From positions 11,067 to 75,066 of the IMG/VR virus record IMGVR_UViG_3300042888_001115: 64,000 nucleotides of DNA; one strand, given 5' to 3'. Of this stretch, positions 37,372-63,746 are shown one piece after another. Position 1 is the stretch's first letter, and each line of letters begins with the position of its first letter. The notes below the pieces were generated by a model. The model did not search any database. It was given only the letters and a program-made list of their open reading frames with translations, and was not told the DNA's origin. The DNA is from a virus. Its lineage: Duplodnaviria > Heunggongvirae > Uroviricota > Caudoviricetes. The position numbers and the translations under genes were made by a program.

Positions 37372-38500
37372 TTAATTTATCTATTTCTAATATTGTATTT
37401 GTAGGATTAAAACTATCCATTATAAACTTATAATTCTTTTCTAATCTTTGTTGAACACTATCCGATTCATATATTGCCTTAACTTTATCAATTGATAATT
37501 CATTGATTCGTTTTAAAGCATCTACAAATAGTTCTATTCTTTGTGTTTCCGTTTTATTATCATCCCAACCAATTTCTAATCCAAATACATCTTCAAATGT
37601 TTCTATTCCATATTGTCTCAATGCTGAGTTAAATCCATTACATTGTAAAGATAAGAATATATTTTTACATAACCAAGATCTAATTGTTTTTTCTGTTAAT
37701 CTTAAATCATCCCCACTATCACCACTGCTCTCAATAGTAAATGAAATATATGAATCTAATGAGTTTGTATTGATACTATCATACATATCATTTGTATCTG
37801 AACTTTGTATTTGTCCTAATGCTACCGCATCTTTGTTCTCATATATAAAAAACTCATTTACAAATTGATTTAAGTATTCGATATCAATTACTAAATCATC
37901 ATTACCACTACGTCCCCCACCAGGTCTATTTCTATAATTAATAAAATCTTCTATTGTAGAGAGATTACCAAACGTATCTTTTTTTATTATATTACCAAAG
38001 GTATAATAACATTCGTTTAATTCAATACCTTTTTTTTTGAGCAATTCAAATATTTTAAGTCTTCGTAAATTTATAGACCTATTAAAGAAATTAAACTTCT
38101 TTGTTCTATTATTGTTTGGTATATATGCTACTTTTGAAAACAAGTTTGTAAATGGATAACATCTATTTTTAAATGATATATCATTTTCAATACTATACAC
38201 ATCTAAATGCGTTGTTAAGAAATATATAGTATGATTTGTATTTCTATTTTCTACAATTGCTTTACGCCTATGTTCATTACAATATTCATGTTTAATAAAC
38301 AAAAATATATTTAATTTTAAATTTGGATTTACTGATTCATTTATCTTATCGATTGTATCTAATGTAATAAATAATACATCATTATCTTTAAGATTATCAA
38401 TAAAACTAAAATCATTATATTGTAATTCTATAAGATTATACCCAATTGATTCAAAATATTTAAAGTCTAAACCATAAATAGAATCGTAATAAAATGTCAT
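37343..38500 (-). CDS. large paralogous family A protein (possible glycosyltransferase)
   Basis: C-terminal NGFNSALRQYGIETFEDVFG block like 15310 and 16497. Confidence 0.4.
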   Translation of the reverse strand: MTFYYDSIYGLDFKYFESIGYNLIELQYNDFSFIDNLKDNDVLFITLDTIDKINESVNPNLKLNIFLFIKHEYCNEHRRKAIVENRNTNHTIYFLTTHLDVYSIENDISFKNRCYPFTNLFSKVAYIPNNNRTKKFNFFNRSINLRRLKIFELLKKKGIELNECYYTFGNIIKKDTFGNLSTIEDFINYRNRPGGGRSGNDDLVIDIEYLNQFVNEFFIYENKDAVALGQIQSSDTNDMYDSINTNSLDSYISFTIESSGDSGDDLRLTEKTIRSWLCKNIFLSLQCNGFNSALRQYGIETFEDVFGLEIGWDDNKTETQRIELFVDALKRINELSIDKVKAIYESDSVQQRLEKNYKFIMDSFNPTNTILEIDKLIGYENNVFK

Positions 38501-52475: not shown

Positions 52476-52880
52476 TTACCAGGAAATTTCCCAATCTTTA
52501 AACTCTGCCGCTAAACAATCTATTTTATAATCCATTCTGCCACCAACAACTTCCTGAATTTTATTTTTTGCTACATTTCTGATACCATTAATACCATGTG
52601 TTAATTCTAAATTGTTTCCCTCTTTAATTCCTTTACGATAGTTCGATTCATTCTGCCAAATATGTGCATTGATTTGTGATAATACTACAATTGCTCTAAT
52701 CGTTTCGCCACTAATTGGCTTGTCACTATTATCTAAACACAATTGAATATCATGTACGATATCCGCAATTTCCTGTGCGTATTCTGCTTTGTGTTCAGGA
52801 ATCTTTACTTCTTTTAATTGAGCTATACTCAATCTGTCAATTAACTCCGCTAATGTTGGGAGATATTTTCTTTCACTCAT
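52476..52880 (-). CDS. hypothetical protein
   Basis: 134-aa ORF. Confidence 0.45.
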   Translation of the reverse strand: MSERKYLPTLAELIDRLSIAQLKEVKIPEHKAEYAQEIADIVHDIQLCLDNSDKPISGETIRAIVVLSQINAHIWQNESNYRKGIKEGNNLELTHGINGIRNVAKNKIQEVVGGRMDYKIDCLAAEFKDWEISW

Positions 52881-53974
52881 AGTTGTATGTTTTTTAAATA
52901 ACGAATTAATGTATTTCTATTGTGTTCAAATTCTTCAAAGTTATCATAATAAATACTATGTAAATCGGAGTATGATAAACTAGCAAATTCATTTACCTTA
53001 GTATTAAATGCATCTAAATCATATCCCATATTATTACAATGATACAAAGGACATTCAAATGAAAATCCAAAGTATTTACTAAATTGTTCCAATGTATTTT
53101 CAGGTCCCCAAAAACTAAATGGATTCATAAACATTAATGGTTTATAAATCTTTTCTGAATAGTGTAGTATATTACTTCTATCTGCGTATGGATGTACGGG
53201 TGTACGTGAACTAAATCCTTCCGTTATAATTTCAAAGTAAGTATTATGAAAATGCGTTACGTTTGTATTTTGTGGTTGAAAGTAAACAGGATTTGCTATA
53301 TGTTTAATATCATTTTCAAATACATAATTTGCATTGTTATCACCATCTAATTCTATTGGTAATACTTTATATGCATCTGATTTTAAAATATATTCCATAT
53401 CCGAATTACTCACATCATACATTCTACTATCAAACTTGTCATTAGCCAATGTCCAATTAAAACTAACTAAACCATCATCTAAATTATTATTGTTGTATAA
53501 TGATTCAAATATTTTGAACCTTTCAGTTCTCATATGATGATTAAGAAACAAATATTTCTTTAATCGTTTTTTAGTTCTTAATACATCCCATTGTATAAAT
53601 TTGTTTGATTGTGTAAACCCATCTTTTGTAAAGTTGTCTGCTAATTGTAAGGCGTGTAATGGAAAAAATACATGCGATTTGAATTGACAATTGAGTATGT
53701 TTACCGTCAGTATTTTAAGATTAAACCCACTCAACTCTGCTTCTAATCGTTTATAGGTATTTACATCAATATAACTTTCAGTAGAAATAAAATCTAAATA
53801 TACGTTTTCAATGTTTTGTTTTTTTATGAATAATCCAATACGTTCAATTTTAGGACGAGATGAATCTTCCATTATACTTAATACTAAACATTCTTTTGTA
53901 GGTTTTATATAACCACACGGTAAATGGTCATATTCTACAAACTCTTTATTCTCATATCTAAAATATTTATTCAA
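52877..53974 (-). CDS. large paralogous family A protein (possible glycosyltransferase)
   Basis: C-terminal YKPLMFMNPFSFWGPENTLEQFSKYFGF block. Confidence 0.4.
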   Translation of the reverse strand: MNKYFRYENKEFVEYDHLPCGYIKPTKECLVLSIMEDSSRPKIERIGLFIKKQNIENVYLDFISTESYIDVNTYKRLEAELSGFNLKILTVNILNCQFKSHVFFPLHALQLADNFTKDGFTQSNKFIQWDVLRTKKRLKKYLFLNHHMRTERFKIFESLYNNNNLDDGLVSFNWTLANDKFDSRMYDVSNSDMEYILKSDAYKVLPIELDGDNNANYVFENDIKHIANPVYFQPQNTNVTHFHNTYFEIITEGFSSRTPVHPYADRSNILHYSEKIYKPLMFMNPFSFWGPENTLEQFSKYFGFSFECPLYHCNNMGYDLDAFNTKVNEFASLSYSDLHSIYYDNFEEFEHNRNTLIRYLKNIQL

Positions 53975-55223
53975 CTGAAAACAATTTTATAGTATTAATC
54001 TTTTCTTTCTCTATTAGTTTAACTAAAACATGATAGTTGTACTCACAATTAAAATAAGTTTCATCAACCAGTTCTCTTAACGTTTCTATATCCATACTTG
54101 CTAATTCATCCAATATCTTTAAAAATTTAGCAAACCTTCTTTTATAAAATATAGCCTTTGCGTTATCCTCATGTCTAACTTCATCCATTATCTCATAAAA
54201 TTCGGTAGTATCATCTAATATACTTGCATCATATAATTGTGGGAACAACTTAAATCCATATTCCTCTAATCCTTTATAGATACCCGCACTACCAAATATC
54301 AAAAATGGTTTCTTACATACGATAGGTCTAAATGCCTTCTCAGTTAGTGAACAAAAATCAACCGGGTCACTTAGCGTTTCTATTACTAAATCAATTAATG
54401 CGTTATTATTCTTTTCAAAGTTTACCCACTTACAATTGTAATAGTGTCCACCTTCTAATTCATTTTGAAATACTCTAACAGGAAATTGAAATGAATCATC
54501 TATATCATCCAATAGTTTTTTATTACCATCTCGTTCTCTCTCTGAATATGTGATATACTTTTTACCATCATCCCAATGTCTAAAAAAGAAAGTTGCTTCA
54601 CACTTACTTAACATCCTATTATCTAATAAGTGTTTGTATAAGTGCATTCTTGCTTCTCTCGGTTGGTTGTTAGTAGTATAGAAATGTTTTTGTGCATTTG
54701 AACTATTAACTACAATATTTTCTGCTTCTATTTTCTCTATATTGTTTTCCAAAAAGTAAGGTAAACATCCTAAGTTATAGATTACATTTATATTTTCCCA
54801 ATCATGCGACCAATTCTTTGATGCGATACTAATAAATACCTTATCAATTTGGTCACCGAAAAAACGATTAAGGTGAAATACCAATTCAGGTACAGGACCA
54901 CCGACAGTAAGAAAGTCCATATCCTCACCATAGAATATGAACTTCTTTATAACACCAGTCCTAAGTTTGTCTAAAATTTCTTTTGATTTCTCTAATTGTA
55001 AGAAACCAGGTATTGCAGATGAAATTGATTCAGTATAGAACATACAATAAACTTCATCATCCTCTACAAATTTTATATCACCATACTTTTGTACGCTGAA
55101 TATAAATTGTTTCATATGTCCTTGTCTAATATAATTGTTTTGACCTTCCTCTGAATAGAAGTCTAAATCAATAACACCCCAATTGGATTTATATTCTGTA
55201 AACTTAATTTTAATCTCTTGCAT
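53967..55223 (-). CDS. large paralogous family A protein (possible glycosyltransferase)
   Basis: CKKPFLIFGSAGIYKGLEEYGFKLFPQLYD block. Confidence 0.4.
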   Translation of the reverse strand: MQEIKIKFTEYKSNWGVIDLDFYSEEGQNNYIRQGHMKQFIFSVQKYGDIKFVEDDEVYCMFYTESISSAIPGFLQLEKSKEILDKLRTGVIKKFIFYGEDMDFLTVGGPVPELVFHLNRFFGDQIDKVFISIASKNWSHDWENINVIYNLGCLPYFLENNIEKIEAENIVVNSSNAQKHFYTTNNQPREARMHLYKHLLDNRMLSKCEATFFFRHWDDGKKYITYSERERDGNKKLLDDIDDSFQFPVRVFQNELEGGHYYNCKWVNFEKNNNALIDLVIETLSDPVDFCSLTEKAFRPIVCKKPFLIFGSAGIYKGLEEYGFKLFPQLYDASILDDTTEFYEIMDEVRHEDNAKAIFYKRRFAKFLKILDELASMDIETLRELVDETYFNCEYNYHVLVKLIEKEKINTIKLFSVE

Positions 55224-56082: not shown

Positions 56083-56407
56083 CTTTTAATCCTCTCTTTT
56101 TTATAAGTATATCCATAGATGCACTTTCGTTTTGTTTTATAATCGGTTTTAAACTATCATACAACCCATCCTTAAACACTTCATCCGTTCCCTTATCACT
56201 ATTTGCTACTGCCGTAGAAATGTGTGCAAATCGTTTTAATTTGTACGGAGAGAGTGGTACAATATGTTGTTTGAGACTTAGGGCTTTAGCATCCAGGTAC
56301 TCGAATAATTCCGAGTCGGTCATTTGTTTTAGTTCCTCGTCTGTCTTATTAAATTCCATACTCAAATATACTAATAAATAATGAATTAAAAAAATAAAGG
56401 GGAACAT
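56072..56407 (-). CDS. hypothetical protein with N-terminal TM
   Basis: 111-aa ORF. Confidence 0.4.
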   Translation of the reverse strand: MFPFIFLIHYLLVYLSMEFNKTDEELKQMTDSELFEYLDAKALSLKQHIVPLSPYKLKRFAHISTAVANSDKGTDEVFKDGLYDSLKPIIKQNESASMDILIKKRGLKDGI

Positions 56408-56418
56408 TTCTGCTCCCC
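56388..56418 (-). terminator. intrinsic terminator
   Basis: Gene-sense GGGGAGCAGAAATGTTCCCC hairpin + TTTATTTTTTT after the 56430 stop. Confidence 0.45.
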
Positions 56419-56429
56419 GTTTGTATGTT

Positions 56430-58277
56430 TTAAACTACATTTTGTGTAGATATATTCATTAATGGATTTTCCAAATCTAAATTATCAATTGTGTTAGTAC
56501 CACGTTTTGATTTAGATTTAATATGTCCTTTATGTTTAGTATTCCCAAATAATTCTGCTTTTCTCTTTGAAGCATTTCCAAATGATGGTAAAAACGATGT
56601 GTATGAAGGCATAGTAGTTGCATCAGTCCAATTAATGTCACTAAAGTAACCATCCTCTTGCTTATTTTCCATTTTAGAAATAAAAGCACTTTTCAAATTT
56701 TCATTAACTACATTAACAATTGTATCGTGTTTATCATGCCATCCGGTTACAAAACTATCTCCAATATGTTTGCGAAATGCTTTGTCTATATTATTCTTAT
56801 CATATTGTGATTCCTTACATTTTGTTTCAATTGATTTGAAGCTTTTCAAAAAGTTAGAATCATCCATTTCTTCTTTAGAGGTAAAATATCTTCGACTAGA
56901 TTGGTTTACCTTATCAAGTGTTTGTTTACCATCTTCTGTTTCCCAATAATATGTATTGATTGGATGCATTGGATTGTTATAATACTCACATATTGCAATA
57001 AAATCAGTAATAACGTTTTCTAAATTACTTAATTCTATCTTTGGTTTCCATATTCTACCAGACGAATCCATATATTGAAATACTTTAGTTATATAGTTAT
57101 ATAAAAATATAGATAAAATAAACATTGATGGTTTTGATATTATCGCAGTTAACGCTTCATTATTATTTTCGTTACTTCCAATTTTGTTAAAAACTTTAGC
57201 AACTTTTAATAAATCTGATTTCATACTCTTTAAATCCGATTCGCTTATTTCACAATCTTTGCTTAAGATAGATGATAACATTTGTTGTTCATTCTTAAAT
57301 CCAAATCTTTGTAATTGCTTTATATCATAATAACATGTATCTGCTATAACTGATATGAGATATTCAAATCCACCATCTTTCTTTTGAAACTTACCTGTTC
57401 CAAATTTTACTGGATTTGCTTTACCATATAACATCTCCAATATCCCACCTACTGAACTATCAGTTGTTTCTGATGCAATATTATCTCTAACAAAAATTGT
57501 AAATGGATTCTTTGTTAACTTAAACTTATGTAGAAATTCTGACCAACTAGTGGATGAATTACTATACCATATAAATTTGGCTATATCTTCAAATGAATCT
57601 GCTTCAGTAATTTCAATTATATTGATAGGGCATTCACTTAAATATTTTAAATATATATTCGTTGTTTCTTCAACTGAAAGTCCTTTGAATTCTTTAATTT
57701 GTTTTGAAGGATTTGTTGAGGTACATTTTGTTTCTAAATCTTTTAAAGATTCAAATTTTATTTCCTTATCATTAACTATAAATGGTGCAAATTGAATTTC
57801 AGCATTTGTTTTTGGTAATTTACCAGTCAAATCACTTATATATTGTGTCATTCTATGTTGCCCATTAACTGAAAAATATTTATCTTTAAATCTCTTTTCA
57901 GAAAAATAGTTAATATCATCTTTCAAATAAGCAATAGATGTATCATATATTGCCTTTTGCGATAATTCTGCATTTAATTTTGAAATTTCTTTAGTAGCTA
58001 ATTCACTTTTCAATACTTTGATAATTGTTTTCGCTGAAATATAATATACCGGCGATGATGTACCAAATCCATTGGTAGCCGCCGTAACCATATTTTTACG
58101 AACTGCTTTCTTTAGTTCTTTAATATATCTATTGATTCTAGTTGAATTAATAAATTTATCTTTATTTTCAAATATATATCTTAAATCACTACCCAATGCT
58201 TCAACTGCAATTCTTAATGATTTTTTGATTTCTATTTTCTTTTTTCCATTTGAAATGGTAAAAATTGTTTTTAACAT
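56430..58277 (-). CDS. DGQHR-domain (DndB/DpdB-like, ParB-fold) protein
   Basis: YFSVNGQHRMTQYI (DGQHR variant) about 140 aa from the N-terminus in a 615-aa protein; preceded by a promoter motif 25 nt upstream. Confidence 0.35.
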   Translation of the reverse strand: MLKTIFTISNGKKKIEIKKSLRIAVEALGSDLRYIFENKDKFINSTRINRYIKELKKAVRKNMVTAATNGFGTSSPVYYISAKTIIKVLKSELATKEISKLNAELSQKAIYDTSIAYLKDDINYFSEKRFKDKYFSVNGQHRMTQYISDLTGKLPKTNAEIQFAPFIVNDKEIKFESLKDLETKCTSTNPSKQIKEFKGLSVEETTNIYLKYLSECPINIIEITEADSFEDIAKFIWYSNSSTSWSEFLHKFKLTKNPFTIFVRDNIASETTDSSVGGILEMLYGKANPVKFGTGKFQKKDGGFEYLISVIADTCYYDIKQLQRFGFKNEQQMLSSILSKDCEISESDLKSMKSDLLKVAKVFNKIGSNENNNEALTAIISKPSMFILSIFLYNYITKVFQYMDSSGRIWKPKIELSNLENVITDFIAICEYYNNPMHPINTYYWETEDGKQTLDKVNQSSRRYFTSKEEMDDSNFLKSFKSIETKCKESQYDKNNIDKAFRKHIGDSFVTGWHDKHDTIVNVVNENLKSAFISKMENKQEDGYFSDINWTDATTMPSYTSFLPSFGNASKRKAELFGNTKHKGHIKSKSKRGTNTIDNLDLENPLMNISTQNVV

Positions 58278-58300
58278 ACTTTTAAATTTTAGTGTTTATT

Positions 58301-58312
58301 AAATATACGAAA
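58301..58312 (-). promoter_or_regulatory. promoter -7-like motif TTTCGTATATTTAATA
   Basis: About 25 nt upstream of ATG 58277. Confidence 0.4.
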
Positions 58313-58331
58313 TATAATTGGATTTACCAAA

Positions 58332-58934
58332 TTATATATTTTGTTCTTTGTATAATTTCATATACTTGTCACTCATTTTTTTGTAGTTCATTCTGAAATT
58401 AGGGGGCATTGCTTCATAGATAGCTTTATTACTATATGGTGCGTTGCCTGGTCTACTCCATCTCTTTGAGTATCTCATCCAATTATAAAACTGAATATAT
58501 GCATTTGCTTTCTTAATGTAATCGTTAAGGTCAATTGGTAGTTTCCATTTCTTAATTAACTTTACCGAGCGTTTCTCATTATCCAATTCTAAATCTCTAC
58601 TCCATTCTATTGCGTTTTTAATGCTACGAATTTTCTTGCCACCCAACCAATCGTCTAAATGGGTCACTCCGGTCGAACCGGTTTTCCATATGTTAGTGCT
58701 CTTATCTTGCCATTGTGTTAAGTGTGCATATTCATGTGTTAATATACCTAACCAATCTTTACTTTTACCCGCTACTACTAATCTCATAGTTTCCTCACAA
58801 AAGTAACCACTACATCTTATATTACCACTCAATACTAAATATTTTACAGGTCGTATTTGGCATCTAATCCCCACTTCCTTACAATGTCCTTTCACATGAT
58901 TAATGAAAGCTCTTACGTTTTTTGTTAATGCCAT
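58332..58934 (-). CDS. SprT-like HExxH zinc-metallopeptidase domain protein
   Basis: LGILTHEYAHLTQW with upstream Cys/His-rich segment. Confidence 0.45.
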   Translation of the reverse strand: MALTKNVRAFINHVKGHCKEVGIRCQIRPVKYLVLSGNIRCSGYFCEETMRLVVAGKSKDWLGILTHEYAHLTQWQDKSTNIWKTGSTGVTHLDDWLGGKKIRSIKNAIEWSRDLELDNEKRSVKLIKKWKLPIDLNDYIKKANAYIQFYNWMRYSKRWSRPGNAPYSNKAIYEAMPPNFRMNYKKMSDKYMKLYKEQNI

Positions 58935-58954
58935 TTTGTTTTATTATTAATTTA

Positions 58955-58987
58955 AAAAATAAAGGAGGGTACAAATTGTACCCCCCT
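58955..58987 (-). terminator. intrinsic terminator
   Basis: GGGTACAAATTGTACCC 7-bp palindrome followed in gene-sense by TTTATTTTTT, after the cobS-like stop. Confidence 0.5.
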
Positions 58988-59043
58988 TAGTTATTTAGGT
59001 ATAGTCGTTATGAGTATGTATAAAACTATACCCTCATAACATA

Positions 59044-60276
59044 TTACCAAACAATAGTATCGTCATTCGCATCTTCCTCTTTCACTTCGTTGAATAACTT
59101 TTCACCTTCATTCTCATCTACTACGAATTTTTGTATAAGTTGCTTAATGTAAGTACGCTCACTATCCATACCACCATCTTGTGAATAGAACGGGAAGATT
59201 GCTACCTCAGCTGCTTCTAACAAACTGAAACCATCATACAACAAACCTGCCATCTCTACTGAAATACGAGTTGATACAGCAGTTGTCAATTTACCCGCCT
59301 CACCTTTGATTTGGTCTCTAGTGTGTGCCGCAATCTCTGCTACTGATTTCAAATTGTAATCATTCGTATCAGGATATAACATCTTTAACAATTCATATTC
59401 CTGCTCAGCATTCAATACATCTACCTCAATTGTCACGAATCTATCTAACAATGCTCTATCCATTACACGCGTTGCAGTATATTCAGAACCGATGTTTGCA
59501 GTTGCAATAAAGGTAACACCTTCTGCCACCTTAACAATTGGTGAATTTTCTTGCTCATCTAATCGTAAGTATCTTTGTGTTTGGTCTAACACTGTCATTA
59601 GGATATTAGCGGCTTCTGGATGAGCTCTACTTAATTCATCTAATAACACAACTGCGTAAGGTGTCTTAATAGCTTTAACGAATGCACTCTCACTAAAATA
59701 AGTACCACTTGCTTTGTTAAAGTGTGTGTTACCAATTAATGCCGCCCTCGGGTCTTGCGTCGCACCTAAGTTAAAGTAATGAAACGGTCTTTTCAATGCC
59801 GCAACTAATGCTTTAGCTGCCATTGTCTTACCACTACCCGCAGGTCCTGTCATCATAATATTTCGCGCTCGAACCGCTGAACGTAATAAATATTTCCACT
59901 TCAACTCGTTCATAATTAAGTTAGCAGGTTTTAACGCCATACCCTCTTTATGAATGAAATCGATAACATCTTTATGCTCCGTTGGATTTTCTACGATAGT
60001 TTCAGCGATATCCGTATTCATCGGCTTAACCAACATATCCGTATATTCTTGCATTTCTACCATACGATAGCTTTTAGCTCCGTTTTTGTTTACATGCGCA
60101 CGAATTGCTTTATTTTGTGCTGATGCTTTTTTTCGTAAAGAACTACCTACTATTGTAGAATCTGAACTACTTAATACATCACCCGCAGTATTAACTAAGT
60201 TAAAACGGGATTTAAGATTTTCTACTTTGTACACTTCATTTGTGTAACCATACTCTTGTGTTGCTTTTTTACTCAT
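59044..60276 (-). CDS. cobS: MoxR/CobS-like AAA+ ATPase
   Basis: Walker A MMTGPAGSGKTM, Walker B VVLLDELSRAHPE, followed by a MoxR-type ANILMTVLDQ segment; 410 aa. Confidence 0.7.
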   Translation of the reverse strand: MSKKATQEYGYTNEVYKVENLKSRFNLVNTAGDVLSSSDSTIVGSSLRKKASAQNKAIRAHVNKNGAKSYRMVEMQEYTDMLVKPMNTDIAETIVENPTEHKDVIDFIHKEGMALKPANLIMNELKWKYLLRSAVRARNIMMTGPAGSGKTMAAKALVAALKRPFHYFNLGATQDPRAALIGNTHFNKASGTYFSESAFVKAIKTPYAVVLLDELSRAHPEAANILMTVLDQTQRYLRLDEQENSPIVKVAEGVTFIATANIGSEYTATRVMDRALLDRFVTIEVDVLNAEQEYELLKMLYPDTNDYNLKSVAEIAAHTRDQIKGEAGKLTTAVSTRISVEMAGLLYDGFSLLEAAEVAIFPFYSQDGGMDSERTYIKQLIQKFVVDENEGEKLFNEVKEEDANDDTIVW

Positions 60277-60322
60277 AACTGAATTTTTAATGTTTATTGT
60301 TTAATTATTGTTTGATATATCA

Positions 60323-60335
60323 TAAAGATACGAAA
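60323..60335 (-). promoter_or_regulatory. promoter -7-like motif TTTCGTATCTTTATGATAT
   Basis: About 50 nt upstream of the cobS-like ATG. Confidence 0.4.
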
Positions 60336-60418
60336 TTCTGCCCACACTACCAAAACTATTTATAACCTATTGAATATCAACACATTATACACATCCATTT
60401 AGGGTAATGTATAACACA

Positions 60419-60438
60419 TTGATAATCAATTAGTTAAG
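60419..60438 (-). promoter_or_regulatory. conserved 20-mer TTGATAATCAATTAGTTAAG
   Basis: About 85 nt upstream of the promoter motif. Confidence 0.45.
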
Positions 60439-60451
60439 TTTTAGTGTGTTT

Positions 60452-62596
60452 TTACGCTTTTTTCATAAAAAGCTCATTCATTGTTTTAATGATAGGAACG
60501 ATTTGTTTAACATCAATAAAACGGCTGTCACTTCCGTACATTGTTTTAAAGTTGTCAGATGAACTACTATATGAACTGCCACCAACAAAGTAACTCATAA
60601 CTTGTATACCCATATCTTTGATTTGTCCTACCATTTTCTTAGTGTGTAACAAAGCGTTTCTACCACTATAAGAACATTGTTGATTTGAGAATGTTGGCTC
60701 ACCATCACATATGTTTAAGAAATAAGAATCCATATCTTTGTTGCTCTCTACAAAATGTTTAAGTATCGCTTGATAACATAAACCTTCAGGTGTTGTACCA
60801 TTGGCGTGTAATGCAGGAAACAATCTCTTAACTTTCTCAAACTTATCAAATCTACTATCATACGCAATACATATGTAAGGTTTATCACCCCACGTACCTC
60901 TGATAGAAACTTGTACATTTAAGTTACTTACCATTGATGCTGCTTTACAAATAGCAATTGTTACGGCTAATGTATCATCCCACACACTACCACTCATTGA
61001 ACCACTACCATCAATAGTAACGTGCAACATTACTTTCTTAAACCTATCTACTTCTTTGGTACTGAATACATTTACATAATCATATCCTAATGCTGCTACC
61101 ATTCTCTTATCAATTCTACCATTCTTTTGGCGTGGATTGATTGTTTCTCTTTCCTCACTACGAACTGCAATACGCTTACCTAAGATTGTACCCATTACGA
61201 TACCTCTTTGTAAAGTATCAGCATTCCAGTTATTCCATTTATCATTCCAAAAACTAGCGAAAGGGAACGAACTATCTTGCATCAATCCTTCGGTCATTTT
61301 CTTAGATACGATACATTGAACCGGTTGAATATATCCACCATTCTCTAATTTAGTATCACCTACGGATTGCATTTCAGTTCCACTCTCAGCCATTTGGTCT
61401 AAGGTTTCATCCTCTTTCTTAGTTAATCCTTTCTTTTTGATATTGTTATTAACGAAGTCCTTTTGCTTTTGGATTTGTTTATCCAATTGTTTCTTAGCAG
61501 TATCACTCATTAAATCTTTACCATTACCAGTTTGTGAAGCACCACTCGTAGAGTCACCTTTCTCACCCATCACAGGTGCATCACCACCACTACCACCCAT
61601 TTCATCGTTTTGTTTATCACCTGCCTCTGCTCCAGTTTCATTACCTGCTTCGTTTACATCTGCAGGGTCACCATTACCCTTACCTTTACCATCTTTACTT
61701 AAATCAACTAAGATATGTTGTAAGATAGTGTTGGTAATCTTTTCTGCTACCTCTAATGAATCGGTTGTATTTTTTAATCTACTAATATTCTTAAGGTCTA
61801 ATGTTTCGTAGATTTCTTTCAAACCTTTCAATTTGTTAAGGTCAGTATTTTGATTTGTGATATTGATAATACGGAACATATACGATTGTAATGTTTCATC
61901 CGTATATTCATCACTTATCAATCCTTTGTCAATAGTCTTATCATAGAAATACTCATCATACAATGCTCTATAATAGTCTCTATAACCTGGACAAGTATTG
62001 TAGATATATTGGTCAATCCTTCTATCCTCTACAAAGTTTACCAATGATTTAACTACATCAAATAATTGTTCTTTGTTTCGATAATGTTGTGTACCATCAA
62101 AAGAAGGGTCATTTACATCTAAACCCGCTGCTTTTGCAAAGTTATTAAACATTTCGGTTGGTGCAGAATAAGCAGGCATTAATTCAAAGTCCGTAAGAAC
62201 AATGTGTGATGCTTCGTGCAATGCCAAACCTACCGCGATATCAAACTTTTCAGGTTTAACCTCAGCTGATAATACTACCGATTTACCATCAGTATAAGAA
62301 TCACCTTTACGCGAAAACTTTACAGGAATGTTTTTGTTTGTAAGAATGTTCACAAAGTTAGCAATTGCTCTCCTATGTGCATTCAACTTAATAAGGTCAG
62401 CAGTACTGCTTTCTACCTTATTGTACTCTTTTGGTTTCCAAGTATCACCACCCCAATATGTAGTAGGTGTGTCATAGGAACTCCATTCATCAGCCCAAAA
62501 TGAACTCGCTGATTTTTTCTCTTTCTTTTTACTAGTGTACGAACCTTTAGTTAAATAATCTAAAGTACCCGTCTTAAAACTGTCATACCAACTCAT
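60452..62596 (-). CDS. cobT: CobT-like protein with C-terminal VWA domain
   Basis: VTIDGSGSMSG MIDAS (DxSxS), central acidic/Gly-rich linker, 714 aa, adjacent to the AAA+ partner. Confidence 0.6.
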   Translation of the reverse strand: MSWYDSFKTGTLDYLTKGSYTSKKKEKKSASSFWADEWSSYDTPTTYWGGDTWKPKEYNKVESSTADLIKLNAHRRAIANFVNILTNKNIPVKFSRKGDSYTDGKSVVLSAEVKPEKFDIAVGLALHEASHIVLTDFELMPAYSAPTEMFNNFAKAAGLDVNDPSFDGTQHYRNKEQLFDVVKSLVNFVEDRRIDQYIYNTCPGYRDYYRALYDEYFYDKTIDKGLISDEYTDETLQSYMFRIINITNQNTDLNKLKGLKEIYETLDLKNISRLKNTTDSLEVAEKITNTILQHILVDLSKDGKGKGNGDPADVNEAGNETGAEAGDKQNDEMGGSGGDAPVMGEKGDSTSGASQTGNGKDLMSDTAKKQLDKQIQKQKDFVNNNIKKKGLTKKEDETLDQMAESGTEMQSVGDTKLENGGYIQPVQCIVSKKMTEGLMQDSSFPFASFWNDKWNNWNADTLQRGIVMGTILGKRIAVRSEERETINPRQKNGRIDKRMVAALGYDYVNVFSTKEVDRFKKVMLHVTIDGSGSMSGSVWDDTLAVTIAICKAASMVSNLNVQVSIRGTWGDKPYICIAYDSRFDKFEKVKRLFPALHANGTTPEGLCYQAILKHFVESNKDMDSYFLNICDGEPTFSNQQCSYSGRNALLHTKKMVGQIKDMGIQVMSYFVGGSSYSSSSDNFKTMYGSDSRFIDVKQIVPIIKTMNELFMKKA

Positions 62597-63293: not shown

Positions 63294-63313
63294 TTGATTA
63301 TCAATTAGTTAGG
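63294..63313 (-). promoter_or_regulatory. conserved 20-mer TTGATTATCAATTAGTTAGG
   Basis: About 100 nt upstream of the promoter motif. Confidence 0.45.
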
Positions 63314-63746
63314 TAAATTGGTGTATTTCGTTGTATCTATTCAATATAGACCTAATGTTTTCAGCACCTACCGGATTTGCTGAATGTATTAAATATGTAG
63401 GCATTGGTAAACCATTTTCACTACAATATTCAATTAACCATTTTGCACAATCATATCCCGTTTTTTCTTTGAAATCTGCTTTTAATGGGTCAGGTGGATT
63501 TTCTCTACCACCATTATCAAAATAGTAGTTTATATGTTCCTCACCTAAATCGTGGTCAAACGATACAATATTAGGGAGGCCATTAAGTGCGATTGTTCCT
63601 ATAAATTCACCATAAGACCTAACTACTTTCCATTTTAAATCTTTATACCTACTATCACCACTTTTTTTAAAGGATGCTTTAGGTTCTCTAATATCATCTA
63701 AATATAAATTGTAACTCTCTTGCATATCACGTTTCCATTTAATCAT
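63309..63746 (-). CDS. hypothetical protein
   Basis: 145-aa ORF. Confidence 0.45.
   Translation of the reverse strand: MIKWKRDMQESYNLYLDDIREPKASFKKSGDSRYKDLKWKVVRSYGEFIGTIALNGLPNIVSFDHDLGEEHINYYFDNGGRENPPDPLKADFKEKTGYDCAKWLIEYCSENGLPMPTYLIHSANPVGAENIRSILNRYNEIHQFT

Follow-up and report, generated by a model that had tools for sequence, protein, structure and literature searches.

The window analysed here is a 64-kb stretch (64,000 nucleotides) of the IMG/VR virus record IMGVR_UViG_3300042888_001115, which is assigned to the Caudoviricetes. Between positions 56430 and 62596 we find four open reading frames (ORFs), all on the minus strand. In the order of transcription they encode a VWA/MIDAS protein, an AAA+ ATPase, a small protein with an HExxH motif and a protein of 615 amino acids (aa) that carries the motif NGQHR. 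The nature of this last protein, and its relation to the genes beside it, are the main subject of this work.

A first-pass annotation, made from the sequence alone, had described these four ORFs together with their motifs, and all of them are present where it placed them. It had put the 615-aa gene upstream of the others; the gene is in fact the last of the four to be transcribed and lies downstream of them. The genes had also been described as one co-directional block. They do share a strand, but this is uninformative: since essentially all long ORFs of the window are found on the minus strand, co-directionality is no evidence of an operon.

A rare protein family with two conserved motifs

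The gene of the 615-aa protein occupies 56430..58277 (minus strand), and its family is small. Only 11 clusters belong to it among 5.8 billion proteins, and a profile search with HMMER over 1.84 billion representatives returned 12 members and no bridge to any known family. A tblastn search of 50,697 phage records gave nothing, and for the intact protein we were not able to find any relevant match in Pfam, PHROGs, NCBIfam or PADLOC. The 11 closest members are 611-628 aa long, with a mean column identity of 63% over the full length.

The motif VNGQHR (aa 137-142) is part of a longer segment, KYFSxNGQHR (aa 133-142). The codons of N138-G-Q-H-R142 lie at 57852..57866 (minus strand), and the five residues would be the counterpart of DGQQR in GmrS or of DGQHR in DndB. 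NGQHR is invariant among the 11 closest members, at least 90% conserved in a larger alignment to which divergent members at 23-28% identity were added, and kept in the divergent members P0014 and P0016. In the minus-strand proteome of the window the pattern [DN]GQ[HQ]R is expected 0.007 times and was seen once. The motif, to which the first-pass annotation had drawn attention, is real, non-random and strongly constrained.

At the other end of the protein there is a second motif, which had been missed. In an alignment of 11 diverse C-termini of the family it reads [HD]xxH-x2-3-(A/S)(K/R)xxGG(S/T)-x4-N(L/I/V)-x8-N, and H585, G593, N599 and N608 are invariant. The version in the window is HKGH-x2-SKSKRGTN-x3-NLDLE-x4-N (aa 582-613, codons at 56439..56534, minus strand), a putative His-Me finger (HNH/EssD-like) nuclease motif. 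When a 41-column profile of the C-terminus was compared with 177,635 sequences of the Protein Data Bank (PDB), only two matches were obtained, EssD (E 0.011) and the HNH domain of IscB (E 1.6), and both fall on the active sites of His-Me finger nucleases. The pattern 'xGH..A(K/R)..GGS...N(L/I).......N' aligns with the active-site segment 'DGGHLIARMFGGSKDIDNLVAQSKFINR' of EssD and with the IscB HNH segment. What is common to the 615-aa protein and the EssD/EsaD-type and HNH nucleases is only this motif of about 30 residues. Furthermore, the Pfam models HNH_5 and HNH match weakly in three members (E 0.06-0.07), and the DUF1524 profile does not match the 615-aa protein.

We also came across a short protein, P0019 (164 aa), in which a DnaJ J-domain-like N-terminus (YYNVLGV...HPDKN) is fused to the last 75 or so residues of a protein from a marine clade of the family, including the His-Me finger-like motif. 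It may be a chimera of assembly or gene calling, or a real recombinant.

A structural model of the 615-aa protein was computed with AlphaFold2 (AF2) from an 11-sequence alignment and has a predicted local distance difference test (pLDDT) score of 71. The N-terminal region (aa 24-240) is mixed alpha/beta in this model, and a long helical hairpin (aa 82-125) is inserted directly ahead of the strand that runs into NGQHR. The model is almost all helical between about aa 247 and 540, mostly with a pLDDT of 70-90, which fits the definition of GmrSD as two domains joined by a helical linker of 200-400 residues (PMC4619093). Likewise, the order of the parts (a motif near aa 140, a helical region of about 300 aa, a C-terminal nuclease motif) fits the overall layout that has been described for GmrSD and BrxU (PMC4619093, PMC8565348).

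N-domains from which the hairpin had been spliced out were compared with Pfam and NCBIfam for 10 members of the family. The spliced domain of P0014, the most divergent member, matches Pfam GmrSD_N (PF03235) with an E-value of 9.4e-4 over profile positions 52-183 of 199. The family was also compared by hhalign with an alignment of eight BrxU/DUF262 sequences built from plasmid records. The scores are not significant (E 0.0035, probability 9.3% for the spliced N-domain); the register puts NGQHR on DGQQR (BrxU D98-R102), FIWYSN on IFIRMN (the FxxxN motif) and NLDLE....N on NLQLL....N of DUF1524, all in the right order. On the other side, the models for DndB in Pfam and for DGQHR/DndB in NCBIfam (PF14072, TIGR03187/TIGR03233) and the Dnd/Dpd models of PADLOC match neither the intact protein, nor 16 members at E<=10, nor the 10 spliced N-domains. 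There is also no Pfam match between the family and ParB_N (PF02195), and searches of PDB sequences with phmmer and with full-length or N-terminal profiles returned nothing relevant. In DGQHR proteins a near-invariant DGQHR is preceded by a QR pair and followed by FxxxN (PMC4619093); the candidate flanking motifs in the 615-aa protein are RINRY upstream (NR, not QR) and FIWYSN downstream (FxxxxN).

Each of these signals from fold and profile comparisons is weak when taken alone; all of them point toward GmrSD and none toward DndB. The first-pass annotation had suggested kinship with DndB/DpdB or with ParB-fold proteins in general. At the level of the superfamily this idea is plausible, if on weak evidence: the 615-aa protein may belong to the ParB/Srx-type superfamily, of which the DGQHR (DndB) and the DGQQR (DUF262/GmrS) families are both members. 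The more specific link to DndB/DpdB is not supported: it found no profile match, and at the family level the signals lead to GmrSD only.

A cassette slot shared with ParB_N-type genes

The window is part of a large aquatic phage. Its base composition is even, at about 30% G+C, and it contains no tRNAs. Closest to it are metagenomic contigs, the longest of 249 kb, which have the gene order in common with the window and 80-96% protein identity; near-identical DNA was not found in the 50,697 deposited phage records. In the related contig L022 both flanks of the 615-aa gene are present with 84-90% DNA identity. The homology ends exactly at the stop codon of the 200-aa HExxH gene (58332) and restarts 6 nt past the stop codon of the 615-aa gene (56424). 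Between these breakpoints L022 has an unrelated gene of 437 aa with the canonical ParB_N boxes NPLNR and GHHR, and contig L023 has the same right-hand junction, there after a ParB_N gene of 429 aa. As a rare accessory cassette, the 615-aa gene replaces a ParB_N-type gene precisely and one for one; no ParB_N homologue was found anywhere in the window.

The cassette is well delimited. Its left edge is a spacer of 54 nt (58278..58331, minus strand) 5' of the 615-aa gene. Just 3' of the stop codon there is a terminator-like hairpin (56399..56418, minus strand; 8-bp stem with 5 G-C pairs, then a T-run), which lies inside the flank common to L022 and L023. A second such hairpin (58962..58988, minus strand; 12-bp stem with 6 G-C pairs, then a T-run) is found between the stop codon of the AAA+ gene and the start codon of the 200-aa gene. 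Together the two hairpins bracket the 200-aa and 615-aa genes.

Some further observations concern the slot itself. The spacer is about 73% identical to an unrelated intergenic segment (L023:6479-6557), with ATACAAA.AA.AAAA..TA.ATAATTTGGTA.. in common. The resemblance suggests a promoter-like element specific to the lineage, which moves along with cassettes or receives them. Within the window the spacer has a single copy. In L022 a gene of 186 aa for a DUF1281_C protein (Api92-like ferredoxin-like domain; L022:11679-12239) is inserted exactly at the site of the window hairpin 58962-58988, which makes this point a second hot spot of insertion and deletion within 2 kb. The occupants of the slot in close relatives (L022:12855-14168, L023:14926-16215) belong to a family of 429-447 aa with the boxes NPLNR...GF...VVP...Y.LFEGHHRL.A. 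Ahead of the boxes, some 160 aa at the N-terminus of this family form a conserved domain (G..FE...LL.K.G....R......DG..ISDH....W.ESTT..DK.R..EF), which by eye resembles a nuclease-type D...E.(S/T)..K signature. No PDB sequence matches the slot family.

Homologues of the 615-aa protein are found in at least five other neighbourhoods. For example, the homologue from the marine clade (36% identity) has a GNAT/asparagine-synthase-like pair on one side and, on the other, an N6/N4 methyltransferase-like gene beside a family-B DNA polymerase. Homologues at 41-44% identity have as neighbours a HAD_SAK_2 gene, a phosphoribosyltransferase, a SnoaL_2 gene and unannotated small genes. Some neighbours of the marine homologue have the same length as genes of the window (418 against 416 aa, 111 against 111 aa) and were considered as their counterparts; they are unrelated. 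The marine clade also encodes proteins of 410-416 aa with an SPPY motif one to three genes away from the homologue (L005:2183-3433, L017:4344-5576), which match N6_N4_Mtase with E-values of 1e-5 to 7e-5, just below the cut-off. A Cpn60 chaperonin gene is nearby as well, and L017 has a second methyltransferase-like gene of 550 aa (L017:10623-12275). Such neighbours fit a logic of self and non-self recognition without proving it.

The arrangement of the window recurs in the contigs L012 and L013. Because these three are one lineage with 93-97% identity, the adjacency in them does not count as independent evidence. We find no support for a functional link between the 615-aa gene and the AAA+/VWA pair, because a hairpin lies in between, because the homologues occur in other neighbourhoods and because a ParB_N gene is swapped in within a near-identical backbone. 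Furthermore, the VWA/AAA+ pair is represented by more than 4,500 proteins without the 615-aa gene. The block consists of independent units and is not one system. The first-pass annotation had raised the possibility of a function in DNA modification or anti-defence, tied to the AAA+/VWA pair. This linkage is not supported, and modification genes were not detected: neither a homologue nor a motif of a DNA methyltransferase was found in the 64-kb window, and dnd or dpd genes have no match among the 24 window ORFs that were scanned.

A possible GmrSD-like endonuclease and its alternatives

The anatomy of the genes, the conservation of the motifs, the rarity of the family, the replacement of a cassette and the varied neighbourhoods are direct observations; from the motifs, the model and the profile comparisons we infer a fold, catalytic roles and a biological target. 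In our opinion there is an even chance that the 615-aa protein is a highly divergent, stand-alone, nucleotide-regulated DNA endonuclease with a GmrSD-like architecture. Our confidence is only moderate because no family-level statistic reaches significance. With the GmrSD type IV restriction enzymes (PF03235 with a DUF1524 HNH domain, such as BrxU, PDB 7P9K, and Eco94GmrSD) it has in common a single polypeptide of about 600 aa with a long helical middle, (D/N)GQ(Q/H)R some 100-140 residues from the N-terminus followed by hhhxxN(S/G), a C-terminal nuclease-type motif H...N-L-x-L....N, and a stand-alone gene that is mobile between contexts. On the other hand, it differs from them in several ways. 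It has no significant sequence-profile match, its motif begins with N where they have D and has H for their second Q, a hairpin of 45 residues precedes the motif strand, and the candidate RINRY stands in place of the upstream QR..W. The nuclease motif lies in the last 35 residues and is closer to EssD/HNH (..GH..) than to DUF1524 (DHIxP). Finally, the gene is found in a large phage of lytic type and not in a bacterial defence island.

If this reading is correct, the N-terminal ParB/Srx-type (DUF262-like) domain with its inserted hairpin would bind a nucleoside triphosphate (NTP), and R142 of NGQHR would bind its gamma-phosphate, as in the models of GmrS and BrxU. Dimerisation or the reading of DNA may fall to the helical middle region of about 300 aa. 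The C-terminal His-Me finger would then cut DNA; H585 would be the general base, and N599 and N608 would keep the fold and the metal in place. For a lytic phage the target would be DNA that is chemically unlike the phage's own, that is, the host chromosome or a co-infecting phage.

Several results weigh against a GmrSD-like nuclease. The last 40 residues of the AF2 model, which include the nuclease motif, have a pLDDT below 50, and because of this the His-Me fold is unmodelled. The full-length model has no Foldseek match in the PDB below E 1.7. With a model of the N-domain only (pLDDT 79) there is no BrxU or ParB-fold protein in the top 60, where matches to the helical hairpin are dominant. 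The HMMER profiles found no DUF262, DndB or ParB relatives among 1.84 billion proteins or in the PDB. The match to GmrSD_N reaches 19.8 bits where the cut-off is 33.2, and it was obtained for one of the 10 members only, with an artificially spliced sequence; the hhalign probabilities against BrxU/DUF262 are 1.5-9.3%. The NGQHR motif begins with N and not with D, and the residue before H585 is G and not D or E. In short, all family-level signals are below conventional significance.

A bolder proposal, which we consider less likely than not, is that the 615-aa protein is the first of an unrecognised branch of ParB/Srx-nucleases carried by phages: NTP-gated His-Me finger endonucleases that interchange with ParB_N genes at a fixed slot in large aquatic phages, act offensively against the DNA of hosts or rival phages and are a counterpart of bacterial type IV restriction. 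If the assignment to GmrSD is correct, the 615-aa protein would be a phage-encoded GmrSD-like nuclease, of a kind that we did not find described in the literature searched, with a sequence so far diverged that the intact protein escapes all family models. It would extend the ParB/Srx-nuclease superfamily. It would also mean that ParB-type cassettes are exchanged at a defined locus of large phages, with a bearing on competition between phages and on the degradation of host DNA. Note that the adjacency to the 'CobS/CobT' pair is uninformative on the role of this long-unexplained pair of phage genes.

How do other explanations compare? The 615-aa protein could be a functional stand-in for the ParB_N protein whose place it takes, that is, a DNA-binding protein with a nucleotide switch (a ParB/KorB-like clamp or regulator) for genome organisation or gene control, with the C-terminal motif serving in DNA binding or nicking instead of restriction. 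Replacement by a functional analogue is common in phage genomes; the slot of close relatives holds the 437-aa or 429-aa protein with NPLNR and GHHR, within exact cassette boundaries, and BLASTP pairs KYFSVNGQHRM with KYMLFEGHHRL. However, a comparison of the 615-aa family with the ParB_N family of the same slot by hhalign gave a probability of 1.3%, that is, no relationship between the two profiles. The other homologues occur in unrelated slots and the invariant H...N...N motif at the C-terminus looks catalytic, and we consider this explanation rather doubtful.

A second alternative is that the gene is selfish and encodes a free-standing homing endonuclease of the HNH type, perhaps extended by a DNA-binding domain, that has invaded various intergenic sites and has no role in conflicts with hosts or between phages. 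This would agree with the HNH-like C-terminal motif and with a patchy distribution: about a dozen clusters in varied neighbourhoods, with precise insertion or replacement at gene boundaries together with an upstream element of its own. Typical HNH homing enzymes of phages are 150-300 aa long, whereas the members of this family are far larger and more evenly constrained over their whole length. Moreover, a whole gene has been replaced, instead of an insertion beside a conserved target gene. A homing enzyme therefore seems quite unlikely to us.

The four genes could also act together, with the AAA+/VWA machine and the HExxH peptidase activating, loading or processing the NGQHR protein. MoxR/VWA systems do act on specific clients (NorQ/NorD, CbbQ/CbbO), the adjacency is kept in the window, L012 and L013, and L022 and L023 again have a ParB-type gene downstream of the pair. 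Against this, the three contigs with the full arrangement are one lineage and the hairpin (58988-58962) intervenes. The pair has no ParB-type gene nearby in L025, homologues of the 615-aa protein are found elsewhere without the pair, and those of the 200-aa protein are found in XacN1 and RAS14 without the pair and without the 615-aa gene. We judge joint action very unlikely, and a four-gene operon was rejected, given the terminator-like hairpin and a linkage that is not conserved.

The usual length of DndB is about half that of the 615-aa protein. That the latter is a DndB/DpdB-like DGQHR sensor or regulator of DNA modification, which cooperates with the AAA+/VWA pair to modify DNA or to counter defence, is highly improbable. 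In favour of this reading, its GQHR core is identical to that of the DGQHR signature (PF14072, TIGR03187, including DpdB), the marine-clade homologue has N6/N4 DNA methyltransferase-like genes at a distance of one to three genes, and DGQHR and DUF262 are sister families within the same ParB/Srx-type superfamily (PMC4619093), so that weak GmrSD signals are compatible with a DGQHR origin. Against it, no DndB, DGQHR or Dnd/Dpd model matches the intact or spliced protein, the window has yielded no methyltransferase and its scanned ORFs no dnd/dpd match, the nuclease-like C-terminus is lacking in DndB, and the linkage to the pair is not conserved and is interrupted by the terminator-like hairpin.

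The AAA+/VWA pair, the HExxH protein and other neighbours

As a pair, the VWA and AAA+ genes are conserved on thousands of contigs from a widespread lineage of large aquatic phages. The ATPase (410 aa; 59044..60276, minus strand) has the Walker A motif GPAGSGKT and the Walker B motif VVLLDE. It matches AAA_5 (9.3e-19, 68 bits), CbbQ_C (5e-5, 23.9 bits with a cut-off of 20.6) and bpMoxR (1.9e-5) in Pfam and phrog_249 (4.5e-30) in PHROGs; the nearest solved relatives are NorQ (9e-10) and CbbQ (4.5e-6). The VWA protein (714 aa; 60452..62596, minus strand) matches phrog_5298 (2.8e-5) and phrog_1576 (1.2e-5), and it has upwards of 4,500 homologues, carried by contigs as long as 249 kb. In an alignment of 12 members with 59-89% identity the N-terminal half contains an invariant HEASH (aa 127-131), an HExxH motif that had been overlooked in the first-pass annotation, and EDRRID (aa 190-195). 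It is followed by a variable, acidic and Gly-rich linker at about aa 300-360 and by a C-terminal VWA domain with the invariant MIDAS residues D529-S531-S533, T601/T602 and D631. The two proteins are a MoxR-class AAA+ ATPase and a VWA partner with a complete MIDAS, as had been described.

The pair had also been called CobS/CobT-like, the name that such phage genes usually receive. As a resemblance the label is fair. NorQ/NorD, CbbQ/CbbO, CobS/CobT and the phage 'cobST' clusters (PMC8651126) all have an ATPase with AAA_5 and CbbQ_C adjoining a MIDAS VWA protein with an acidic linker, and the PHROG families matched by the pair are labelled as porphyrin or cobalamin biosynthesis. The pair differs from the MoxR/VWA and phage cobST systems in the order of the genes (VWA, then AAA+), in the invariant N-terminal HExxH...E domain of the VWA protein and in its failure with the CobS equivalog model (TIGR01650), where the 410-aa protein scores 18 bits against a cut-off of 558.55. 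On account of this failure a true cobaltochelatase was rejected. The ORFs that were scanned include no CobN, and the function of the pair is unlikely to be cobalt chelation. The VWA protein is 'CobT-like' in a loose sense only: Pfam CobT_C is matched by 5 of the 12 members (best 0.0029) and VWA by 3 of them, all weakly, and CobT_C does not match the 714-aa protein of the window itself.

By analogy with NorQ/NorD, CbbQ/CbbO and CobS/CobT, the pair may consist of a MoxR-class hexameric ATPase and an adaptor that binds a client via its MIDAS, and here the adaptor would additionally bear an HExxH domain. Such a client-remodelling machine would be separate from the 615-aa protein. The genes are adjacent in L022, L023, L025 and LR756508, in reversed order in the last of these, and in the Microcystis phage Mel-JY01 they are 13 kb apart. 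As an aside, the HExxH motif on the VWA protein may explain the frequent annotation of phage cobT genes as peptidases (noted in PMC8651126).

The small protein of 200 aa (58332..58934, minus strand) has the motif HEYAH at aa 67-71 (H67-E68-x-x-H71) and is a putative metallopeptidase, judging from this motif. It had been labelled SprT-like. The HExxH motif is there, but the SprT label (PF10263) was rejected, since profile support beyond HExxH is absent. The only family match is DUF6782 (6.6e-4; 3e-5 to 3e-4 for the orthologues), which at 19.5-23.8 bits stays below the cut-off of 27 bits, and there is no match in the PDB or PHROGs. The gene follows the AAA+ gene in L022 and L023, and in L025 a different small HExxH protein (HEICH) is encoded at this place. 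In the jumbo phages XacN1, Xoo-sp13, RAS14/CM1 and LR756502 the homologues are not beside AAA+/VWA genes; in XacN1 and RAS14 they are close to portal and prohead genes.

Among the other genes nearby in the window are those for a DNA ligase, an FG-GAP protein, a GP88-family protein and a cREC_REC protein. The last has 145 aa and matches the cyclic-phosphate processing receiver domain (PF20274, 9.5e-22; 63309-63746, minus strand); it is encoded a few genes upstream of the VWA gene, likewise in L021-L024. Just 3' of the cassette there are two large ORFs of 418 and 365 aa (52877-55223, minus strand), which are 82-96% conserved in L022 and have no Pfam match; the product of the former has a weak paralogous match inside the window at 37571-37771. 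Upstream of the region, a TonB-dependent receptor/SusC-like gene (CarboxypepD_reg, Plug, beta-barrel) is present in the related contigs together with an Endonuclease_NS gene (L021/L022:1-2525 and L023:1-1469), which hints at Bacteroidota as the hosts of these large phages.

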